Assembly (NCBI GenBank): GCA_051362555.1
Contig: CM120646.1
Span: forward strand, 9,176,001-9,240,000
Direction: 5' to 3'
Source of the DNA: Lingula anatina
Taxonomy: Eukaryota; Animalia; Brachiopoda
DNA length: 64,000 bases
This document shows, piece by piece, positions 4,772 to 55,279 of this stretch (the first letter of the stretch is position 1; each line of letters opens with the position of its first letter). The notes beneath the pieces are model-generated. The model searched no databases and had not been told where the DNA came from. It saw only the letters and a list, made by a program, of their open reading frames with translations. Both the position numbers and the translations under genes were made by a program.

Positions 4772-4850
4772 CTTTCTGTTTTATTTTTCAGACGACTCCC
4801 GTACCGCTGAACATCATGTGGCCAAAAGAGGTGCATCTGCTGCCACCATG
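4772..4850 (+). promoter_or_regulatory. Splice acceptor and Kozak start context
   Basis: Polypyrimidine tract ctttctgttttatttttcAG ends at 4791; GCCACCATG has its ATG at 4848. Confidence 0.7.
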
Positions 4851-6647
4851 AAACTCAAGCAGTTTATGGCCAATACATTACCACGTGCCAGAGGAAAATC
4901 GAAACGCAAACAGCAGTCTTTATCTTCTGCCCATGAGCTGACACAAGTGCAACACACGGCAGACCAACATAACATACAGCAAAACGGACCACAGGTGGCG
5001 GTATCGGTACACATCAATAAATATGTTGCAGGAAGTGAACTTGATAACAAGGACGTGGTGCGCAATTACAGCGATCCACTTTTTGTAAATTTAAACTTCG
5101 GTGAACGCCAGAGCAAATGCGCATGCTATAAGCATGTGATCATAGACGGGCACAATTTCCCGCCATTGCACGACAAAAACGCAGAAAACTGTCCTGCGGA
5201 CTTTGATCTTACTTCCAGTTGGACAGATAACAATTACAATACACTTCCCAGAGTTAGACCAAGAATTAAAAGACGAACCCTTGGTTACCGTCTCCTAGGT
5301 CATCGCCCAGTACATCACCAGGGTCAACGCGCACGACGTCATCCACTGTCTCATTTCCGGCCGACGGCAGCCAAGCAGCACTGGAAGATTCTGCACTGGA
5401 AGAGCCAAGCTCAACTTCGGGTGAGTGTAACGAGGAATCCAAAGAGCTATCTAAAACGAAGGATTATTTCCCCACAGATCATCTTTGTGGTGAAATGCCG
5501 TCGCTTGACAGCTCAATTGACGTCGATGACCTCTGATAGCGGGCGGTTCTCTATGACTGGAAGTGGTGTGAGTTCTTTGGTCAGTTCCATCATGTCTGAT
5601 GGCTGTGAGCCAGTGACCAGTCAAGCACCAGCATTACCACCTTCAGACGTGAAGCCCCTAGAGGCAATATGTTTGTCAGATGCCGTACAAACACCAGATA
5701 TAATCTGTGATACAAATGAAAGTCGCCTATCAGCTTTATCTCAAGCACCAGACATATACATTCGCACTGAAGCAGGACAGAGCGTACAAGAAGAAGTAGA
5801 AGAAGAACCAGATCTCCTGATTCAGTCTCAAGGTCTCATTCCCAATGATGATGAAGAAGATATAAACTATGAGGAATTGTTTGAAAAGAACATCGAATTG
5901 GTGACCTCGGAGAGCGGCTTTTCTTTCGACCAGTGTCTCATAGATGAAGAGGGCAGTCTAAGTGACGACTTCCTGGAGTCAGGAGTGGACATTTTTGCTG
6001 ATGAGTGTACAGATGAGTTTCTCTTTCAAACGGCAACAGGCCGTGATTTTGAAGATAAAACTGACAGGTTTGAGACCTGTGATAACCAACAAGAGGAACA
6101 TGGTGCTGTAAACGTGCAGGAAGGCCAACTGCTGGGATGCATGGGAGTTACTACGATCAACTTGTTGAGGATATCTGCAAAGACGCCATTGCAGCTGCTA
6201 AAATCGAAATCAAGACTGAAATCGATTATCCATCGAAATTAAATCCTTCAGATGACTGTTGTATTAATGAACCCGCTTCGGGTCGAGATAAATATACTGC
6301 GTCGCTGGTGAATAAGAGTAAAAGTTTTCGTACTGATACAGAGCCTACAAGAAAAAGTGAGGCGTTTGAAGGCCGGTAGACGCATCATTGAAGAGAAAAT
6401 AAGAGAGGCTCAGGAAGAGGAGCAGCTTCGTCTTGGACAGCGCATCCGCTTCCAGAGGCAAATCACACTCCACCGGAAAGAGATGTTGCTTAAAACTCTG
6501 GGATATTTACGGGAAAAGTTGGCAGACCAATGTACACGCCTGCAAGCCAGCTATAATAACGTGCTAGAGATGCAGAGAAATATCTTTCGACAGCATTCTC
6601 GTGGCGACTTAATGCTAAGCGGGTCAACATTTGAGCTCACTGTGTGA
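4848..6647 (+). CDS. Uncharacterised protein (~600 aa) with Ser-rich and acidic middle and C-terminal coiled coil; four apparent frameshifts
   Basis: Kozak ATG. The protein-like path is MKLKQF...RPRI / KTNPWLPSPRSSPS...MPSLDSS (5270-5515, other frame) / LTSMTSDSGRFS...acidic / GSYYDQLVEDICKDAIAAAK (from ~6143) / QSLQEKVRRLKAGRRIIEEKIREAQEEE...FELTV, stop at 6647. The frame path is inferred from composition. Confidence 0.7.
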
Positions 6648-25180: not shown

Positions 25181-27095
25181 GTGTATGCTGATGTTGTTAC
25201 TGTTTGTGTCTGCACATATTATGATAACTGTTTTTATTTATGTTATAACTGTTTGTGTCTGTACATATTATGATCACTATGTTTGCTTATGTTGTAACTG
25301 TTTGTACATATTATGATCACTGTGAGTGGTTATGTTGTTTCTGTTTGTGTTTGTACATATTGTGATCACTGTATGTGTTTATGTTGTTACTGTTGTGTCT
25401 GTACATATCATGATCACTGTATGTGTTTATGTTGTTACTGTTTGTGTCTGTACATATTATGATCACTGTGTATGCTTATGTTGTTAATGTTTGTGTCTGT
25501 ACATATCGTTATCACTGTATGTGTTTATGTTATTACTGTTTGTGTCTGTACATATTCTGATCACTGTATGTGTTTATGTTGTTACTGTTTGTGTTGTTAA
25601 TGTTTGTTTCTGTACATATCGTTATCACTGTATGTGTTTATGTTATTACTGTTTGTGTCTGTACATATTCTGATCACTGTATGTGTTTATGTTGTTACTG
25701 TTTGTGTCTGTACATTTTATGATCACTGTGTATGCTTATATGTTGTTACTGTTTGTATCTGTACATTTTGTGATCACTATGTGTGTTTATGTTGTTACTG
25801 TTTGTGTCTGTACATTTTATAATCACTGTATGTGTTTATGTTGTTACTGTTTGTGTCTGTACATATTATGATCACTGTGTATGCTTATATGTTGTTACTG
25901 TTTGTATCTGTATATTTTGTGATCACTATGTGTGTTTATGTTGTTACTGTTTGTGTCTGTACGTTTTATAAACACTATGTGTGTTTATGTTATTACTGTC
26001 CATCTTTGTACATATTGTGATCACTGTATGTGTTTATGTTATTAATGTTTGTGTCTGTACAAATTATGATCACTGTATTTGTTAATGTTGTTACTGTTTC
26101 TGTCTGTAGATATTATGATCACTGTATGTGCTTATGTTGTTAGTGTTTGTGTCTGTACATATTATGATCTCTGTGTTTGTTTATGTTGTTAATGTTTGTG
26201 TTTGTATATATAATAATCACTGTGAGTGTTTATGTTGTCACTGTTTGTGTCTGCGCATTTTATAATCACTGTAAGTGTTTATGTTGTTACTGTTCGTGTT
26301 TGTACATATTGTGATCACTGTAAGTGTTTATGTTGTTACTGTTGTGTCTGTACATATAATGATCACTGTATGTGTTTATGTTTTTACTGTTTGTGTCTGT
26401 ACATATTGTGATCACTGTATGTGTTTATGTTGTTACTGTCTGTCTTTGTACATATTGTGATCACTGTATTTGTTTATGTTGTTACTGTTTGTGTCTGTAC
26501 ATATTGTGATCACTGTATGTGTTTATGTTGTTACTGTTTGTGTCTCTACATATTGTTATCACTGTGTATGCTGATGTTGTTACTGTTTGTGTCTGTACAT
26601 ATTGTGATCAGTGTGTGTGTTTATGTTGTTACTGTTTGTGTCTCTACATATTGTTATCACTGTGTATGCTGATGTTGTTACTGTTTGTGTCTGTACATAT
26701 TGTGATCAGTGTGTGTGTTTATGTTCTAAATGATTGTGTCTGTACATATTGTGATCACTGTATGTGTTTATGTTGTTATTTTTTGTGTTTGTACATATTG
26801 TGTTCCCTGTATGTGTTTATGTTGTTACTGTTTGTGTCTGTAGATATTGTGATCACTGTATGTGTTAATGTTGTAACTATTTGTGTCTGTACATATTGTG
26901 ATCACTGTGTATGCTTATGTTGTTACTGTTTGTGTCTCTACATATTGTGATCACTGTATGTGTTTATGTTGTTACTGTTTGTGTCTGTACATATAGTGAT
27001 CACTTTATGTGTTTATGATAGTTTTGTTTGTGTCTGTACATATTATGATCACTGTGTATGCTTATGTTGTTACTGTTTGTGTTTGTACATATTAT

Positions 27096-27209
27096 TATAG
27101 GATTATTATTTATGTAGACTTATGTAATTTATCTTCTGTTTCAGATAGCGATCATTGTCAAGTTGGACCAATAAACGCTTAACGACAAGTAGTACAGTGT
27201 ACTTATTTA
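27096..27209 (+). repeat. 5' LTR (114 bp)
   Basis: TATAGG...CTTATTTA; AATAAA at 27170-27175; matches 32306-32415 with ~4 substitutions and a 4-bp indel. Confidence 0.93.
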
Positions 27210-27220
27210 TGATCGCTATC
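27210..27220 (+). promoter_or_regulatory. Primer-binding site complementary to its own LTR (putative self-priming)
   Basis: TGATCGCTATC is the exact reverse complement of GATAGCGATCA at 27144-27154; it does not start with TGG as tRNA 3'-end PBSs do. Confidence 0.8.
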
Positions 27221-27234
27221 CCATACCTGACAAC

Positions 27235-28100
27235 ATGCCGGCGGTCCAGTGCCCAATAGAAGGCTGTGACTACACCACAGATGACCTTGATGCCACTATC
27301 GTAGCAGCCCTACTCACCACACACAGCTCTGTTCATACCAATGCCCCCGTTACTGCAGCCAAAGTGGAGAAAGTCAAGCGGCCCACAATATCAGCCTGCG
27401 GTACCAGCGAATAGTGGTCATACTTTCAGTCCAGATGGACAGAATATGCCGATGCAACAAAAATAGCTGGCAAAGACAGGGTTATCCAATTGCTGGAATG
27501 TTGTGATGACCCCTTGCGAAAAGACTTAACTAGGACAGCAGGTGGGAGCCTTGCAAACAAATCCGTTGATGAGGTGATGGCCGCAAAGCATTAGCAGTAC
27601 GCACAGAGAACATGCGCCAAGACAGAGATGAACCTGTCCGCAACTATGGAGCCCATCTAAAAGGCCAGGCAGGAGTATGCAAATTTTCTGTCTCATGCCC
27701 CAGTTGCAACACTGCTGTAAGCTACATGGAGGAGATGACCCGTGATGTTCTAACCCGTGGACCAGCAGACTCTGAGATCCAAATAGACCTTTTAGGGAAT
27801 AAGAACCAGGACATGACATTGGAGGAAGTCCTTCAATTTGTGGAAGCAAAAGAAGCAGGAAAGCGCTCCGCATCACGCTTACAAGAATCCCAAGCAGCTG
27901 AGGCCATCGGTAGCACTTACCGACGCAAGAAATAAGAGACCCCCATCCCTGCCGAAAAACCACCCCAGGACCCCTGTGGCTACTGCGGAAAAACTGGTCA
28001 TTGTAAGGCTGCTCCTCTACGCATAAGAGAGATTGCCCCGCCTTTGGGCACAAATGCCAGACCTGCACACGATACCACCACCTTGAAATAGTGTGCCGTA
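27235..28100 (+). pseudogene. gag: gag (disrupted)
   Basis: MPAVQCPIEGCDY...KVKRPTIS...WSYFQSRW...QLLECCD; in-frame TAG at 27412; lesion near 27590; two Cys/His knuckles (CGYCGKTGH, CQTCTRYHHLEIVC). Confidence 0.85.
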
Positions 28101-31100
28101 GCAAAGATAAACCCAAGCTGAGCCAGAAGACTACTTCCTGTCATGAGGTAGATGACTGTGAAGGCGCAGTCTTTGAATCACTCTGCTCTGTCAACATCAC
28201 AACACAACATACGAAAGGCAGGGCCATTGCTTTAGATCATCATATCTATGATCAATTGAATGACACCTGGGTGCAAAGAGCTTCCAAACCACAACCGTTC
28301 GTCAACCTCAGAATCACGGTCTGTGCAGATGATTACAGAGAGCTAGGCTTCAGTCTTCTATCCTCAGCCACACCAATAGAACATCCCTCAATGGCTGACA
28401 CTGGTTGTCAGAGCTGCCTTGCTGGCATTAGGGTAATCCAACGTCTAGGCCTGAAGCGACTGGACCTGATTCCAGTCACTATGAAGATGCACACTGCTGT
28501 CAACAATGGCATCAACATTCTTGAAGCAACTGTACTTTGCTATGCTGGGAGGGGCCCATCTGGCAAACTGGTGGAAACAAGACAGATGACTTATGTCACC
28601 GACAACTCTGACAAGCTCTTTATCAGCAGGGAGGCATGTATTGCACTTGGCATCATACCAAAGACCTTCCCGACTGTGGGTGCATATCACATGTCGCAGT
28701 GTGCATCCGTGTTCCCTGATATTACCCTTACAGCATGTGGCGCTGATGCCGAACACACATGCACTTGCCCCAAACGTCAACCACCTCCCTCACCTCCAAC
28801 CAAGCTGCCCTTCCCTGTGACGGAACAGAATTGTGGGCGACTGAAGGAATACCTTCTGGACTATTACAGGTCCAGTACGTTTAATACATGTGATCATCAG
28901 CCCTTGCCCCTTATGGACAGCCCGCCAATGAAATTGATGGTAGACCCTTCTGCTGCACCAGTAGCCTATCACACTCCAATACCAGTCCCACTTCACTGGC
29001 AGGAAGAAGTGAAAGCAGGTCTCGACCAAGATGTCAGACTAGGGGTTATCGAACCAGTCCCAGTTGGTGAGCCAGTCACCTGGTGCCACCGCATGGTTGT
29101 ATGTGCAAAGAACAATGGCAGGCTACGCCGCACAGTTGATCTACAGGCCCTGAATGCACATGCTACACGAGAGACCCACTTCTCCTTTTCACCAAGCCAG
29201 GGCTGTGCCCCAAGGCAAGAAAAAGACAGTTCTGGATGCTTGGAATGGATACCACAGTGTACCCATTCGTGAGGAGGATCGCCATCTCACAACGTTTATC
29301 ACACCCTGGGGAAGATACCGATACAAGGTTTCCCCCCAAGGGTACATTGCTTCAGGTGATGGGTACACCAGGAGATATGACAAAATTGTCTCGCACATCA
29401 CCAACAAAACCAAATGTGTCGATGATGTCTTACTTTGGTCCAGCTCAATAGAGGGGAGTTTCTTCAAAGCCGTGGAGTGGTTAGACATCTGTGGTAGACA
29501 TGGCATCACCCTGAACCCAGAGAAATTTGTCTTCGCACAAGATGAGGTGGAATTTGCAGGATTTGACATTACCCTGGACAGTGTCAAGCCCAGTTCCAAG
29601 TACCTTCAGGCCATCTTGGACTTTCCCACCCCTCGAAACATTACTGATGTGCGATCATGGTTTGGTTTGGTCAACCAGGTATCATATGCCTTCAGCATGG
29701 CAGACAAAATGCTTCCCTTTAGATGTCTCCTTCAACCTGGAACCCCCTTCAGATGGGATGAGGATCTCAACAGTCTCTTCGAAGAATCCAAGGCTGTCAT
29801 CTCCAAGGAAATTGAAGAGGGGGTCCAAATATTTGACAAGTCCAGGCCCACATGCCTTGCAACTGACTGGTCCAAAAATGGAATTGGGTTCTGGCTCCTA
29901 CAGAAGCATTGCTCTTGCCTATCCGACCATTCTGCTGCCCATCTGGATGGAAGATTACTCTTGTAGGCAGCCGTTTCACCCACTCTGCTGAATCACGAAA
30001 TGCCCCCATCGAGGGTGAAGCCCTAGCTGTTGCTGATGCTCTGAACAAGACAAGGTACTTTGTCCTTGGATGTCATGACCTCATCATTGCAGTTGACCAC
30101 AAGCCATTACTGAAGGTCTTTAGCGGCAGGTCCCTTGATGATATTAACAACCCCCGCCTAAGAAACTTGAAGGAGAAAACCCTCAGATACCGCTTCCGGA
30201 TGGTACATATATGTGGGGTCAAACACCTTGCTGCAGATTGGGTATCTCATCATCCCACAGGAGATCCAGATAAGCTCCCACTCCCTGACGACGTTGCTAC
30301 TGTCAGCCAACATCACCCTCGGTCTCAAATCCGATCCCCTGCCCCCAATGACATCCCCATGGAGGAAAACATCATCTCTGCACTTACATCCTCTCTGGCA
30401 TCCATCACCTTGAAATAGGTGACCTGGGACAGAGTACGCACAGCAACCACAAGTGGTGCAGATATGGCTATGCTAGTAAACTTAATAACCTCAGGTCTGC
30501 CAGAGAGCCGCCAAGAGTTCCCCATGAAGCTTCGCGAGTATTATCAGTTCAAGGAGGACCTCAGCACAATCGACGGAGTTGTGTTGTATAGAGACAGTGT
30601 AGTCATCCCACCTGCATTAAGACAAGAAGTCCTCTCTACATTGCACAGTGCCCATCAGGGGATCTCCTCTATGATAACCAGAGCCGAGTCCTCAATCTTC
30701 TGGCCTGGCATTACACCTGATATAATATCCACCAGAACAGGTTGCAACCATTGCAACCGCATGACCCCCTCCCAACCGAGTGCCCCTCCGACACCATTGA
30801 TATATCCTGACTACCCATTCCAGTGCGTCTGTGCTGACTACTTCCACTACATGGGTAATAACTACCTTGTCATCGTTGATCGGTATTCCAACCAGCCGAT
30901 TGTGGAGAGAGCATCCGAAGGAGCGGCTGGCCTGATAGCCTCTCTTCGACGGACTTTTGTCACCTTTGGCATAACCGATGAGCTATCCTCAGATGGGGGA
31001 CCGGAGTTCACATCAACTGTCACCAAGAAGTTTCTTTCTGATTGTTGTGCACATCATCGTATGTCATCAGTAGCCTTTCCCCATAGCAACTGCCGTGCTG

Positions 31101-32071
31101 AAGTTGGAGTTAAGACAGTAAAACGCCTCATCACAGACAATACCAGCCCTAATGGTGACCTGGACATGGACAGCTTTCAGCGTGCTATGCTTCAGTACAG
31201 GAACACCCCAGACAGAGACACCAAACTCTCACCAGCAATGTGCGTCTTTGGGCACCCCATCCGTGATTTCATCCCCATTCCACCGAGAAGATATAAACCA
31301 CACACCACTTGGCAAGAGACCCTTAAGGCTAGGGAGGAAGGGCTCAGAAATCACCATATGAAGATGGCAGAACACCTTACGGAACACACCAAGAGACTTG
31401 TACCCCTTGCAGTAGGGGATCGTGTCCGAATCCAGAACCAGACAGGCCCTCACCCCCTGAAATGGGAAAAGACTGGGACCGTGGTTGAAGTACGGCAGTT
31501 CGATCAATATGTTGTGAGAGTAGATGGCTCAGGACGAGTCACATTATGGAACAGGAAATTCCTCCGGCGTTACACTCCTGTCCTGCAACCCACACCAATC
31601 CAGACCATAGACCGTGATCTTCAGCTTCCGCATGCTACCCCGCCACTTGCCAAACTTGCAGCTGATCAAGAGACAAGGAAGGAAATCCCTGGCTCTCCTC
31701 CAACGCCACCTGCCAAGGTTGCCACTGATCAGGAGGAATGCAAGGAAGAAATCCCTGGGCTACCTGCAACACCTAAGGCCAAGGCTACCTCACACTCTCA
31801 TGCCACACAAACGCAGTGTGAAACCCCGCCATCACTGACTGCACCACCCATACCTCAACTGTTCAACACAACTTCACCCGCCACAGATACGCCATCCAGA
31901 GGGACCGTCACCCCAAAGCACCGCCTTTTATCTTTGGGGAATGCATCTCCACCTAGGTCAGTCAGGGTTTGCACCACTCCACACGTGCACCCCAGGACAG
32001 TGGATAGTCAACCTGGAATGTCCCAACCTCTCACCATGGATCAACCTAGACGCTCCACTTGTGCCACTTGA
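28091..32071 (+). pseudogene. pol: pol: protease, reverse transcriptase, RNase H, integrase (frameshifts and one stop)
   Basis: PR ADTGCQSC; RT LDAWNGYH, PQGY, CVDD; RH LATDWSK, IEGEALA, VDHKPL; IN HSAHQG..CNHC, ADYF, SDGGPEF, SNCRAE. Breaks near 29180, 29930 and TAG at 30416. Confidence 0.93.
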
Positions 32072-32305
32072 CCCCCAGCTTGGCAAAAAGACTATGAGCT
32101 GTCATAAACATTTGAACTCCTGTGTAGTTGCACAGTACAGGAACACCCCATGTTTGCTGTTCCTGTTGTCGTTTGCATATTCAGTTTAACTGTTACTTTG
32201 TAGTTTACTTGTTTTCACACACTAGTGACCTTTCATGGATCATTGAAACATTTTAGTCTTTCTACTGACTTTGGTTATCAGTGAACCTAAAGACTTGGGG
32301 AGAGA

Positions 32306-32415
32306 TATAGGATTATTGTTTATGTAGACCTAATTTATCTTCTGTTTCAGATAGCGATCATTGTCAAGTTGGACCAATAAACACTTAACGACAAATAGTA
32401 CAGTGTACTTATTTA
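32306..32415 (+). repeat. 3' LTR (110 bp)
   Basis: Follows the PPT, is a copy of the 5' LTR, and is followed by the TSD. Confidence 0.93.
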
Positions 32416-34139
32416 ATTATGATCACTGTGTATGCTTACGTTGTAACTGTTTGTACATATGATGTTCACTGTGAGTGTGTATGTTGTTACTGTTTGTGTC
32501 TGTACATTTTATAATCACTGTGTGTGTTTATGTTGTTACAGTTTTTGTCTGTACAAATCGTGATCACTGTATGTGGTTATGTTGTTAGTTTTTGTGTCTG
32601 TATATATTGTGATCACTGTATGTGTTTATGTTGTAACTGTTTGTGTCTGTACATATTACGATCACTGTGTATGCTTATGTTGTTAATGTTTGTATCTGTA
32701 CATTTTGTGATCACTATGTGTGTTTATGTTGTTACTGTTTGTGTCTGCACATTTTATAATCACTATGTGTGTTTATGTTGTTAATGTTTGTCTGTACATA
32801 TCGTTATCACTTTATGTGTTTATGTTCTTACTGTTTTTGTCTGTACATATCGTGATTACTGTATGTGTTTATGTTCTTACTGTTTTTGTCTGTACATATT
32901 ATGATCACTGTGTTTGTTTATGTTGTTAATGTTTGTGTCTGTACATATTGTGATCACTGTATGTGTTAATGTTGTTACTTTTTGTGTCTGTACATATTAT
33001 GATCACTGTGTTTCTTTATGTTGTTAATGTTTGTTTCTGTATATATTATGATCAATTTATGTGCTTATGTTGTTAGTGTTTGTGTCTGTACATATTATGA
33101 TCTCTCTGTTTGTTTGTTGTTAATGTTTGTGTTTGTATATATAATGATCACTGTGAGTGTTTATGTTGTTACTGTTAGTGTGTGCACATTTTATAATCAC
33201 TGTGTGTGTTTATGTTGTTACTGTTCGTGTTTGTACATATTGTGATCACTGTAAGTGTTTATGTTGTTACTGTTGTGTCTGTACATATCATGATCACTGT
33301 ATGTGTTTATGTTGTTACTGTTTGTGTCCTTACATATTGTGATCACTGTATGTGTTTATGTTGTTACTGTCTGTCTTTGTACATATTGTGATCACTGTAT
33401 TTGTTTATGATAGTACTGTTTGTGTCTGTACATATTATGATCACTGTGTAATCTTATGTTGTTACTGTTTGTGTCTGTACATATCATGATCACTGTATGT
33501 GTTTATGTTGTTACTGTTTGTGTCTGTACATATTGTGATCACTGTATGTGTTAATGTTGTAACTATTTGTGTCTGTACATATTGTGATTACTGTATTTGT
33601 TTATGATAGTACTGTTTGTGTCTGTACATATTATGATCACTGTGTAATCTTATGTTGTTACTGTTTGTGTCTGTACATATCATGATCACTGTATGTGTTA
33701 ATGTTGTTACTGTTTGTGTCTGTACATATTGTGATCACTGTATGTGTTAATGTTGTAACTATTTGTGTCTGTACATATTGTGATTACTGTATGTGTTAAT
33801 GTTGTTATTTTTTGTGTCTGTACATATTGTGTTCACTGTATGTGTTTATGTTGTTACTGTTTGTGTCTGTACATATCGTAATCACTGTATGTGTTTATGT
33901 TATTACTGTTTGTGTCTATACATATTATGATCACTGTATGTGTTTATGTTATTACTGTTTGGATCTGTACATATCGTTATCACTGTAGGTATTTATGTTA
34001 TAACTGTTTATGTCTGTACATATTATGATCACTATGTTTGCTTATGTTGTAACTGTTTGTACATATTATGATCACTGTGAGTGGTTATGTTGTTACTGTT
34101 TGTGTCTGTACATTTTATAATCACTATGTGTGTTTATGT

Positions 34140-36264
34140 CTCCTTGATCTAAGCTAATTGCATATAACAGCATGCAAAATCATGTAACAAACACAAGTAT
34201 GATGTTCGAAATTTCGCCGATGACGGCCGCATTTATTGAAAGTCCCAGTACTAAAAGAAATGAAGCGGATGGATACTAAACGCTGAATAGTGTTAACAAA
34301 CATAGAACATTTATGTGTGCGCCTGAAATATCTACTTATAAAATAAAATTTCCAAAGAGATAGTGCACACTTTTCAATTTGTGGGGTTGCAAAGAGGCCG
34401 TGTAAGCTGCCAATTTCTGATCTACTACTTCAGGCCTATCTTGGGCAGATTTATGGTTGCGGGCGGAAAGGGAGTACTGTGAGCCATTGTGACCTAACCT
34501 GAAACCAGCTGTAAAACCTGAAAGCAATTGACCTCTCAGAATAGGGGGTAGCCTGACAGATACCTACAGAGCTTGTTGGGGTCTACTGGTGTTTTGAGAA
34601 CTTTGGTTGCTGGGATGGGGACCCCTGGTGCCCCGTGCGGTATGGTTTGGGTTTGTGATGTTGGACGGTCTTCCTTCTTGGCGGTAGCAACGAAAGGCTG
34701 GGTGGGTTCCCCCTGAGCAGTGAAAGCATTTGTGGTCGTACCCGCAATTTCCCCTGCATTTTGCCCCGGAGTGGAACTTGAAGCAGACCCCAGAGGGGAA
34801 GCTCTTACGAAAGGGCTGTCTGGGTCTTGACGATACTGTGGTAATGGCTGGTAGAGTTAGCACGAGAGTTGAGGAGAGCCCTATTCCAGAGATCCCAATT
34901 TATGTCTTGCCATGGGTCGCCTGACCTTTCCTTATTAATTCTGAATTTGCGGTCATAGGCTAACCAGTCCCCCCTCAGGCCCGCTAAAACCTTTATATCT
35001 TTGGCATATTTCAGCAAGTTGGGGGCTTCGTGAGGGTGTTTTAAAGCATAAACCGAAATAAATGTATGGAAGGCAGTTGTCCACTGACCAGGGAGGTGAT
35101 CTGGGGCCTTTTGCTTTGGGGAATTACGAGGGTAAGTTGGCCATTATGATTTTCCATGACCAGTGGGATAGAATCCCCTAACTGGGGCCCTGGTCTTGGA
35201 GAAGTAGGGCCAGGTCTACGAATTCGTCTCCCCATATCCGATCTTTAATTTTGCTATCAACCTGAGCGTGAAGGGGGATTGACTTGGTATTGTACCTTTG
35301 TGAAGTAGAGGGCTGGGGTGATACCATACCTGGTTCAGTTGGAGAGGAAGACGACGTGGAAGGCAAAGTGCTGTTTGCTGGGCTGCTAACTAGTGATGCA
35401 TGAGCCTCAGTGCCGGTGTTAAGATTGGAAGCTTCAGGGTTGTTTTGGCGATGCTGTGCTGCAGCCAGGTTTTTTGCTACGGCGTCCAATGTTGCCACCA
35501 CATTAGTCACTTTCTCCACCATGTTGACAATCATCTGGTTTTCACTAGACATTGGAGCTGGAAGTTCGGGTACTTGTTCGGTAGAAGGCTTGGGCGGAGG
35601 AGCTAAGGTGGAAGCTGAGGGAGATGCCACAGTGACTGTATTCGGGGAATAGGATGAAGCTGAGGTAGAGGCTGCTGCGGCTGTAGTTGAAGTCAGAGGT
35701 AAAGAGGTTCCTAAAGATGATGGTGCGGCCCCAGAAGAAGATGAGGGTGATGATCGGAAAGAAGTCCTCTTAGCCCTGCGGGTTGATGGACGCACATATG
35801 GAGTCGCTTTTCGTGTTCTCTTTGGAGGCACTGAAAAGCATAACGTAGACAGCGGCAGATTGATGTATAAAATGTTAAACTGCCATATATTGCTCTGATG
35901 AGGAGGAGACGGGGAAGGTGGCGGGTTTACAAAATTGTAAACAGTGTAATTTGCTGACGAAGTCGAATTTTCTGACAACAACTGTGTATTGAGCAGAGTG
36001 GGATGGATTAATAGTGCTCGTTTGATTAAATGCTGAGGTACGGACGTAAAAGAACCCCCCATCTGTGATTGGTCAAGATTCCATATGGGGAATGCAGCAT
36101 TGAATCCGAGGCTAGATAATCTAACTTCCCAAATTTTGCAGCATTGAATCCGAGGCTAGATAATCTAACTTCCAAGATTTGCAGGATTGAATCCGAGGCT
36201 ACGAGCTAATTTCTAAGTGTTAGATCGTCGCCATAAATCAACGTTTCACTACGCCAAACTTCCC
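34140..36264 (-). mobile_element. Internally deleted DIRS/Ngaro-type tyrosine-recombinase retrotransposon
   Basis: Disrupted ORF1 with KIKDRIWGDEFVDLALLL, WLAYDRKFR..PW..INWDLW and CFKFH..C..C.Y.HKC..C...HPA..C; RT N-terminus LSGFTAGFRLG..NHKSA..PEVVDQKL, then truncation. TTTATGT on both flanks. RT core and recombinase absent. Confidence 0.82.
36093..36200. repeat. ~44-bp tandem repeat (2.5 copies) in the 5' region of the DIRS/Ngaro element
   Basis: TGCAG(C/G)ATTGAATCCGAGGCTA occurs three times. Confidence 0.9.
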
Positions 36265-51800: not shown

Positions 51801-52007
51801 TGTTACTGTTTGTGTCTGTACATATTGTGTTCACTGTATGTGCTTATGTTGTAACTGTTTGTGTCTGTTCATATCGTGATCACTTTACATTGTTATGTTG
51901 TTACTGTTTGTGTCTTTATATATTTTGATTACTGTACATGTTTATGTTGTTATTGTTTGTGTCTGTACATATTATGATTACTTTACGTGTTTATGTTGTT
52001 ATTCTTT

Positions 52008-55000
52008 TGTTATGTACCTTTTACATATACATCTGATGAATGTCCTAAACTTACATAATTTTGTACGCTTAACCTCTGGATAAGCTGATTTATCCCCTGG
52101 ATAACGCTAGCCACTGTTGATGAAACGCACTATCCTCTGGATAGCTCTATCCAGAGGATAGCGGCCATATTTATCCATAGGATAGCGCTATCCAGCCTTG
52201 ATGAAACCTGGCCCTGATGAATGTCCTAAACTTACATAATTTTGTACGCTTAATTCAAGCGTGGGCTCGAAATAGGACATTACGTTTTAGACTTACTGAG
52301 TGGATAACGCAATTCACAGATTCCTCAGTTCGTGTCAGATTTACGTAAGTTCGCGCAAAGAAAACCCAAGTCCACATAATGACCAGTTTAATGGTTTATT
52401 AGTTGACTCTGTCTAACTACATCATCTACGTGAAATTTCCAAGTTCAAGGCCGTCTCCCATAGCTCCGTCGAGCGGTCCGCTTCGAGTCTTCTTCAGTCT
52501 GCCCCCCCCAATATTATTTCTAGACGTCTTTTATACGTATTTCTTATCTATAGGTGGATTCTGTGCTGCAGTATCTGGCGGTACATACTAATTTTAATTA
52601 TTCAAATTGCACACGTCCACTTAAGTTACATGACTACAGGTAAGGCCATAAAACGAGTCGAGTGCACAAGCAATGGACTCTAATCAAATTAATTTACATG
52701 TCTGGGAATTATATTTGTGAACACTACACGCCTTCCCTTTTTACCAGAAAAAAATACATTTTTTTTCATTTATCACGTTGGAGACATTCACTCTACATTA
52801 TATTTACAACATATGTACAAAGCTAAGAACGTTAATAAAAGAACACGTTACAGACAGGCCCGGAGGAAAACCAGAGATAAAACCCTTTAATTCATATCTT
52901 TCTTTATCAATTTAGGGAAAAATAGCTCTGGAAACCGGGCAAATGAGCGCCTTATATTTTAAAGTCTTTAAAATTCATTTGAGTCTTTTAGTGTTTAGTC
53001 TTTCAATGGAATCATCGGCAAAACGGCGGGGTCCACCACTCTCGGCTGTATAGTTACTTGGGTTCCAGGACGCAGGACTGATAGGTCTAATGGATCGAAG
53101 CGCTGGAAACCCTCAGCCTTGGATACGCGGCAGGCGGCGGGTCGGAGGCGATGACACAGGCACGGCGATGCAGGGACCATTCACTATCACCTGAAACGAG
53201 ACACAGGGGAAAATAAACTTTCTTCGTTATAAAAAGTTTCATCGTCTTTTTTTCATACTTAAACCTTTCTTCAGTTGTATCTACGTTCAACATACATCTG
53301 TCATTACTCCTTTTTTTAATATGCATATACCGTATAAGCATTAATTTTAGGGAAAAAATTCTAACCCATTTATTCCAGGGAAACAATTCCAATCACAAGC
53401 TCGCCACAATAATAATATTGATAATAAACAAAGTCAATCAGGGCTAATATGAAGAGGAAAAACACCACCTATCATCCCAGACAACAGGAAAACCCACAGT
53501 TAGACCTAATCAAGCTACCAGCACCGTCACGACCGTATCAAGCTACCAGCGCCGTCTCGGCCTGCCTCATCAGCAACACTTGGCCATATGCTGCAGATAA
53601 AACTATGTGAGCTACCAGTGCCGTCATGGTCTGTGTCTGCCAGCAATATCCAGCCCATATTTCCAGCAAAACTCTGTATGTTTCCGAAGTCACAGGACAC
53701 CCGTCGTATCGATCATCATGGCTGGTTACTCAAACAACAACAAGATATTAGCAAGACAAAATCTCTACCCAGTTCCCACAGAACACGGTTCTGCTACCTA
53801 TCCCTTCGTGGGCAGGCATCAACATAAAAAAAAATACCTGGTCTAAATTACCAGTCCCGACACTCCAACGTGGAGCATGGTACCCTTAAAGAAATTATCT
53901 GGTCTAACTTGTATTTATCCATCGGTGGACCTAAATTAACAAGCAGCCCTACGTCGCTAGGAATGTACCAGATCTTCTGCTCCTATTACTTAACAGCAGG
54001 ATAACCTTAAAAAATAAATACTGGGTCTCTAACCTCACTTCGAGATAAACTAACCTGTTTTCACCAGGCCATATGAGCCTCCTTCCTTCATTACCCGTCA
54101 CGACGTTTAATTGTCCTCTTGCATAATATAAAAGTCCAAAAGTACACGTGTTTGTCTGTCTGTGTGTCCGTTTATAATTACTGTCTGCCTACGCACGTGC
54201 CTTGCCTAAACCAGTTCGGTCCGGTTTATTTCGACACCCGTTTTAATATTCCCATTATAGACCAAAGCTTTGATATTGCCTCTATATTCAAATTTGCCTA
54301 AGAACGCTTCCCTTATCACCACGAATGCCGCTTCTTATCTACGTTACCAAATTCTGATAATCTCCAACTATTACATGTAATTCGATCGGCGCAATTAGCA
54401 AACACTTGAAGTTCCTTATCTTACCGCTTGTCTCTGTCGGCCCTTGCACGACAGTTATAATAAATAGCACAATAGCCTGTATACCTCTGAACGTTACAAA
54501 TTTTAAAATCCGATCAAGACCATATCAACGTAAAACCCTTATTTTACTACGAAGAAATTTCGTCAATCACCGAATCAACGCAACAATAACCCGAAAACAT
54601 GTCAAAATACAACAACGACACCACAATACGATATATACTACACTGTACCAACAACGCAAAACTTCTCTTAATTTTTTCACTATGCAATCCTGAATATATC
54701 AAGAAATACAGGTAGAAACCATCTACGACTGCCACGTAACACCAGTGCATTTTTCATGCACTAACGATCTCTTGTGTCTTACAAAAAAAAGTAATCTGCC
54801 TAAACATTTCATGTACCGTAATTACGTGACCCTTAACCAACAATTTTGCGACTTACATATAAAATCGACTTAAACTGGAGGAGCCGTTTATTCCTCTCTT
54901 ACTATCATAAAATTTTACTTGAAATCGGCCAAGTCTCTCCTACTTTGCACTGAATTTGGAAAGCTTTTAATAAATCTTAACATGAATACCACGGCACGAA

Positions 55001-55279
55001 AAGCCGTTAATACTAACGAAATTTACGCAAAATCCAAAATTAAAATACCAGTTACTACAAGTTACAAACAATAAGTCATACTTACTGGCCGGTAGGTGAT
55101 ACTGCCTGGCCGACCGATCTTCGCTGCACGAAGACATACCCTTTCTATACTTACCTTCCCTTCTGGCCATTTTGTGTCTAGTCAGATCTTCCTTGTGCGC
55201 ATTGGAACGTAAACTGGCGAAGCTCAGCCAAATATGTTATGTACCTTTACATATACATATGAGATGAATGTCCTAAACT
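52008..55279 (-). mobile_element. Non-autonomous non-coding LTR retrotransposon, copy 1
   Basis: 3' LTR 52728-52008 (TGTAG...TAACA, ~540 bp net) is preceded by PPT AAAAAGGGAAGGCG and contains TATAAAA and AATAAA. 5' LTR is reduced to 45 bp (55235-55279) and followed by TATTTGGCTGAGC. The 2.5-kb interior has no retroelement ORF. Confidence 0.8.
52069..52213. mobile_element. Right-end fragment of the Harbinger MITE seen whole at 60565-61522
   Basis: Matches 61378-61522 and is flanked by a 40-bp direct duplication. Confidence 0.9.

Follow-up and report, generated by a model that had tools for sequence, protein, structure and literature searches.

A Gypsy clade of marine invertebrates that probably primes reverse transcription with its own RNA

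The window, meaning the whole 64,000 nt stretch of Lingula anatina DNA analysed here, contains an array of a 49 bp satellite (23614–60530) that is interrupted at 27096–32415, 34140–36264 and 52002–55278. The first of these interruptions is a broken Gypsy element of 5.3 kb, which is laid out as follows.

27091–27095, no strand: left target-site duplication ATTAT, inside a 49 bp satellite unit
27096–27209, plus strand: 5' LTR, 114 bp, with TA...TA ends
27141–27144, plus strand: TCAG, initiator-like and also resembling a splice acceptor, recognised from the sequence and the pattern in the clade
27144–27155, plus strand: predicted self-primer (11 nt) and the T that pairs with the final LTR base
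27170–27175, plus strand: AATAAA, candidate poly(A) signal by its sequence, outside the primer
27191–27203, plus strand: small U5 hairpin, 6 nt upstream of the LTR end
27210–27220, plus strand: primer binding site (PBS) abutting the LTR, complement of the element's own LTR, no TGG
27221–27233, plus strand: short leader, near-complement of 27155–27166, unsupported as a conserved helix
27235–32071, plus strand: broken gag-pol encoding Gag with two zinc knuckles, protease, reverse transcriptase (RT) with CVDD, RNase H and integrase
32297–32305, plus strand: polypurine tract (PPT) abutting the 3' LTR, a layout repeated in relatives
32306–32415, plus strand: 3' LTR, 110 bp, with a second primer copy at 32350–32360
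32416–32420, no strand: right target-site duplication ATTAT

The limits of the LTRs are fixed by the 5 bp target duplication and the purine tract. The two LTRs are 93% identical, differing by 4 substitutions and one 4 nt gap. Their termini are TA...TA rather than TG...CA, a point on which the earlier note on this DNA was silent, and U3 is only 47 nt long. The gag-pol region includes in-frame stops and several frameshifts, and neither env nor a chromodomain was found in it. The LTRs, target duplication, PPT and gene order PR-RT-RH-IN are those of Ty3/gypsy elements, and the RT matches that of Ty3 (E 2e-22). The element is a decayed copy of a Gypsy clade found in marine invertebrates. Elsewhere in the window, the insertion at 34140–36264 lies in the satellite on the minus strand, and its longest frame has no Pfam match; its frames resemble what we take to be a DIRS-type gag fragment. 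An open frame of 464 codons at 4848–6242, also without a Pfam match, is probably an exon of a host gene.

The earlier note had pointed out that the 11 nt following the 5' LTR are complementary to a segment within it. The match is exact, with 27210–27220 the reverse complement of 27144–27154, and T27155 pairs in addition with A27209, the final LTR base, giving a duplex of 12 bp in total. The 11-mer occurs three times in the 64 kb (in both LTRs and the PBS), against 0.01 occurrences expected. Folding of 27144–27240 gave −23.1 kcal/mol (z = −3.5), which was equalled by 1 of 200 shuffles, and the predicted pair probabilities are 0.74–1.0. The gag ATG is present at 27235, 2 nt past the structure, as the same note had stated. 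The satellite immediately past the 3' LTR (32420–32427) agrees with the PBS (27210–27217) at 7 of 8 positions, and Tf1 is able to insert at PBS-like sites without integrase (PMC11042837). Despite this PBS-like flank, the clean 5 bp duplication indicates an insertion made by integrase. Targeting of the satellite by the element was rejected, as other copies have different, unrelated flanks.

Relatives were fetched from 80 of 297 matching metagenome loci and from 20 genome-collection loci. Of these 100 loci, the 69 in which the start of gag could be called, and which also had DNA upstream of it and an RT match, were kept; with the window they make 70 loci, which were grouped at 90% RT identity into 40 families. 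Automatic detection found an exact inverted repeat of at least 11 bp before gag in 54/70 loci and 34/40 families, and in 2/69 coding controls and 5/160 shuffles. L008, in which the gag start had been miscalled, was found by hand to carry the pair too, bringing the count to 35/40 families, though family counts are not phylogenetically independent and each family is represented by the member with the longest repeat. The remaining five families lack the region, four because their contigs are cut short, while L035 shows no LTR. Where present, the repeat is exact and 11–18 bp long. When viral contigs were searched, no relatives were found, and two candidate loci there proved not to be RTs. Five bacterial MAGs (G001–G005) hold many intact animal-type LTR retrotransposons, with 13–150 RT matches each, and these are likely to be host DNA within those assemblies.

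Complementarity is kept in the relatives while its sequence changes, as the family collection and a covariation check established: the 35 families have 35 different primers of 10–17 nt each, and all four Watson-Crick pair types are seen at 9 of 12 duplex positions. Between a PBS and the LTR of its own family the match is 10–17 nt long, whereas none of 1190 pairings with the LTR of another family gave a match of 10 nt or more. The second arm of the repeat starts at the final LTR base, an A, in 35/35 families. When LTR ends were set independently, via target duplications, the match ran from PBS position 1 in 15 of 18 loci (8/9 families); the three misses were due to a mismatch in the PBS, a deletion at the junction and a wrongly placed boundary, one case each. 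Relatives with target duplications have LTRs that start with TA and end with TA or GA. The control was a set of 37 further Gypsy elements, each with a pair of LTRs, taken from host contigs of five assemblies. None had a self-match of 10 nt, and 31 had TGG sites. Three further clade members in the control set (L185, L186 and L189) all had the pair. Self-complementarity is therefore conserved across the clade and absent from other Gypsy elements on the same host contigs, which bears out the proposal in the earlier note that the PBS is independent of tRNA.

Half-tRNA priming exists in Copia lineages (PMC6317226), and a PBS could in principle bind a tRNA half or fragment, the LTR match then being secondary or due to chance. 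We consider this scarcely credible here, as the 35 different PBS sequences track their own LTR and no other, the PBS starts with TGG in 0/35 families, and Rfam and ARAGORN scans of the region in the window found no Rfam match and no tRNA match.

The duplex might instead form a hairpin that serves packaging, masking of the poly(A) signal in the 5' LTR or translation control, with priming via an unknown host RNA or another route. The duplex in the window does enclose AATAAA and sits 14 nt before the ATG, and priming itself is a prediction from sequence. Across the clade, however, the loop between the arms (44–83 nt) includes AATAAA or ATTAAA in only 13/35 families, and the ATG lies anywhere between about 15 and more than 200 nt away. 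The duplex is perfectly Watson-Crick and in every one of the 35 families stops precisely at the end of the LTR, the point from which DNA synthesis has to start, and there is no tRNA site elsewhere at the junction. A role of this kind in place of self-priming is very unlikely. Nor does priming by the poly(A)-signal segment apply to this element, in which AATAAA lies outside the primer.

Two further structures had been described in the earlier note, and they fared differently. The AGTAC/GTACT stem near the U5 end is present at 27191–27203 and is modestly supported in the clade. It ranks at 0.05 among shuffles in the window, and a U5 hairpin beats the shuffle median in 28/35 families, with stems of only 3–8 bp and changing sequence. 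At the best of four cuts, the families' own hairpins scored above chimeras (19/35 vs 321/1190). An anchored long-range test of the U5 stem was negative, and folding of the whole segment was weak, with 4/35 families at z below −1.5. The hairpin is likely to be the counterpart of the U5-IR stem of Tf1. The leader block at 27221–27233 is indeed a near-complement of 27155–27166, but as a conserved helix it did no better than chance. In the window, 24% and 26% of cross-family pairings were equally stable and the rank in the anchored test was 0.66–0.75, while across the clade the median cross-family rank was 0.47–0.53. Two tests, using cross-family pairings and shuffled controls, thus led us to reject conservation of a leader duplex 3' of the PBS. 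An alternative helix, in which the PBS tail and leader pair with the LTR, exceeded controls weakly at best (rank ≤0.1 in 8/35 families).

Closely related copies differ in ways that are expected if the primer is copied into the PBS. L018 and L019 differ from L020, L021 and L058, to which they are 99.1% identical in RT, at one primer base and at the matching PBS base. Shifts of the 3' edge of the PBS lengthen or shorten the match between L051 and L086, L087 and L094, and L014 and L015 (copies 97.7–99.6% identical). Tf1 cDNA has been reported with a copy of the PBS at its 3' end (PMC11042837).

The position at which pairing starts resembles a transcription start site. A pyrimidine-purine (YR) step is found there in 21/35 families (9.6 expected), and the commonest start is the A of a TCAGTT-like sequence, which we take to be an initiator. 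Pairing in the window element begins at G27144, which is preceded by A and so is not a YR step. The base following the PBS is C in 23/35 families (12.1 expected), and is so with 22/27 primers that start with a purine vs 1/8 that start with a pyrimidine. MMLV-type RTs favour the addition of C at the end of a template (PMC3877366), and we infer that the C is a copy of the RNA cap. Contigs of the window's species are the same over the LTR and PBS up to 27220 precisely and differ from there on; beyond that point, at least two other sequences of the same species (in runs X2, X4, X10 and X20) run into unrelated DNA. The first base after 27220 in these divergent sequences is T, the complement of A27143, and they are probably non-autonomous derivatives with a 12 nt PBS. 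Transcription in the window element is predicted to start at A27143 or G27144. Within the 45 nt upstream of the primer, in the U3 of relatives such as L018, L060, L088 and L094, a CCTTACC-like motif is found in 10/35 families and a GCGCATG-like motif, presumably of NRF1 type, in 9/35; the window leader contains CCATACC, which is similar to the former.

In another form of self-priming, the primer would not be the capped 5' end: the RNA would start farther upstream or be joined by splicing to the acceptor-like TTTCAG, and its 3' cut alone would be important. A pyrimidine tract and CAG do immediately precede the primer in the window element, and a YAG is found within −5 to +2 of the primer start in 27/35 families. 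The other eight have no YAG, one having CAC there, and pairing starts at the A of the YAG in 14 families but directly after the AG in only one. RNA reads cross from the short U3 into R, as expected of an upstream start, yet a U3 of this size is too small for a normal intron. In four RNA-seq runs, of which 6–25% each was examined, the 8–102 reads per run are a low depth at which there was no pile-up of starts or ends, no joint at the acceptor-like site and no loose end at 27143–27145. If a long 5' tail without a pairing partner were copied into plus-strand DNA, it would also be expected to impede the second strand transfer. We therefore regard this alternative as unlikely.

Together, the pairing data make self-priming of some form highly probable, and we think it probable that the element primes reverse transcription with the first 11–12 bases of its own RNA and not with a tRNA. 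Transcription would start at 27143/27144 and the RNA 5' end would fold back onto the PBS, probably assisted by the small U5 hairpin. By analogy with Tf1, the element's RNase H would cut the RNA at the end of the duplex, leaving a 3'-OH from which minus-strand synthesis would copy U5 and the remainder of R. The primer would remain attached and be the last stretch copied into plus-strand strong-stop DNA, and the PBS would in this way be rewritten from the primer in every cycle. Such rewriting would give rise both to the paired changes between near-identical copies and to the C that follows the PBS.

A homologue search with the coding region returned 2616 matches. Among the best 120 of these, each intact homologue consists of one frame, about 1600 aa long, that includes RT, RNase H and integrase, their RTs are 71–88% identical to that of the window, and those with names are from Mytilus, Mizuhopecten, Elysia and Diadema. 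Twin zinc knuckles were seen in 37/52 full-length homologues. No chromodomain was found in the precomputed domains of the best 120 of the 2616 homologues, nor in scans of four full-length homologues, the window integrase and three C-termini from the clade.

Two RT trees were built, a quick one of 93 rows and a careful one of 50 rows (LG+G4) from a subset picked to span the groups; they contain no Tf1/sushi element or other chromovirus and no named Mag reference. The self-complementary clade has 100/100 support and a long stem (0.85 changes per column), and it lies inside a 98/96 group together with TGG-primed elements. The nearest sampled group, for which support as sister is only 83/83, has TG...CA ends and a TGG site in L174, its sole member with an intact LTR pair. 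A tree uniting the clade with the other Gypsy elements was rejected (p-AU 5e-46), this group having been defined after the tree was seen. Long-branch Gypsy-like RTs (L175–L179, L182 and L183) lie beside the clade, with no LTR pair in the stretches fetched. No name for the sister group was obtained from homologue names, the ESM Atlas returned generic RT clusters only, and peptides of the clade were not found in the searched supplements of surveys of mollusc and annelid Gypsy clades. The RT-tree check proposed in the earlier note, run here without Tf1/sushi, thus places the clade among tRNA-primed, non-chromoviral elements. Its description of the element as Mag-like stands insofar as the neighbours are tRNA-primed Mag-like elements, with RT motifs that we take to be Mag B- and C-clade-like, while the name itself is based on tree position among unnamed elements and on these motifs. 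As the clade is nested among tRNA-primed elements and lacks a chromodomain, self-priming is likely to have arisen separately from that of Tf1/sushi, out of a tRNA-primed Mag-like ancestor.

To our knowledge, self-priming has been demonstrated for Tf1 only, and it is regarded as a hallmark of the Tf1/sushi chromoviruses. Tf1 primes with the first 11 bases of its RNA after cleavage by RNase H (PMC7175516), and a three-duplex RNA structure is common to Tf1/sushi chromoviruses (bioRxiv 2022.12.06.519325; see also PMC4600332 and PMC5341516 on self-priming in this group). Self-priming has been tied to Tf1 or chromoviruses in PMC3601003, PMC5445492 and PMC2864245, and predicted from LTR-PBS complementarity for the Tcn1 clade and the Copia TAR lineage (PMC6317226). 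The Tcn1 clade differs from ours as a chromovirus. The TAR lineage (Houba, Osr-1) lies outside the chromoviruses, but these are Ty1/copia elements, another superfamily, in plant hosts.

Like the window element, Tf1 and Tf2 of S. pombe, Tj1, Tosmo, Tcry1 and the Tf1/sushi group have a PBS by the 5' LTR that is complementary to an LTR segment, which is taken to be the RNA 5' end, as is proposed here. The window element also resembles Tf1 in its 11 nt primer, the lack of a tRNA site and probably the U5 stem beside the PBS, and Tf1/Tf2 in its single gag-pol frame. Unlike Tf1/sushi, the clade lacks a chromodomain, and its LTRs are very short and end in TA...TA in place of ...CA; the loop is 44–83 nt, the primer 10–17 nt and the hosts are marine invertebrates. 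The clade groups with tRNA-primed Mag-like elements, and the leader duplex of the Tf1 'pretzel' is unsupported. Judged by sequence features, the central duplex would work like that of Tf1, but the element is not of the Tf1/sushi type by chromodomain, LTR ends or leader helix. With the Mag lineage (A, B and C clades; MolGy3, MolGy11, PolGy1 and LGF7–9) it shares a single frame in the order PR-RT-RH-IN, twin zinc knuckles, the lack of a chromodomain, short LTRs, and molluscan and echinoderm hosts. The LTR end motifs of Mag A and C are TG...CA (PMC3601003), and our nearest sampled Mag-like relatives have these ends and TGG tRNA sites, in contrast to the TA...TA/GA ends and the absence of TGG in 35/35 families of the clade. 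Surveys of mollusc and annelid Gypsy elements name the Mag-related MolGy3, MolGy11, PolGy1 and LGF7–9 (PMC6238403, PMC8556966, PMC8220671); the main text of two of them is without 'PBS' or 'primer', and the third mentions the PBS generically and lists a TATA terminal motif. In the openly readable literature that we searched, self-priming is not reported for this clade; an earlier mention, for example in Repbase, GyDB or a subscription journal, is possible. What is likely to be new is a variant of Tf1-type self-priming in a non-chromoviral Gypsy clade of marine animals.

Taken further, these elements may form a large, active and phylum-spanning clade derived from Mag, with TA...TA ends, in which self-priming arose independently of Tf1/sushi and requires no structure beyond the primer duplex and a very small U5 hairpin, and in which a PBS rewritten each cycle from the capped RNA 5' end leaves a heritable record of the start site, including a C derived from the cap. 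We give this fuller picture an even chance. If a separate origin in animal Mag-like elements is true, the replacement of a tRNA primer by the element's own RNA is a step that LTR elements can take repeatedly, and with less RNA structure than the pretzel of Tf1. Neither the supply of tRNA nor 3' tRNA fragments would hold such elements in check. With their TA ends and no tRNA site, members of the clade can also be overlooked by annotation tools that filter for TG...CA and a PBS. The 35 natural primer/PBS pairs form a comparative set for studying the requirements of an RT-RNase H that makes its own primer, and they would predict transcription start sites to the base.
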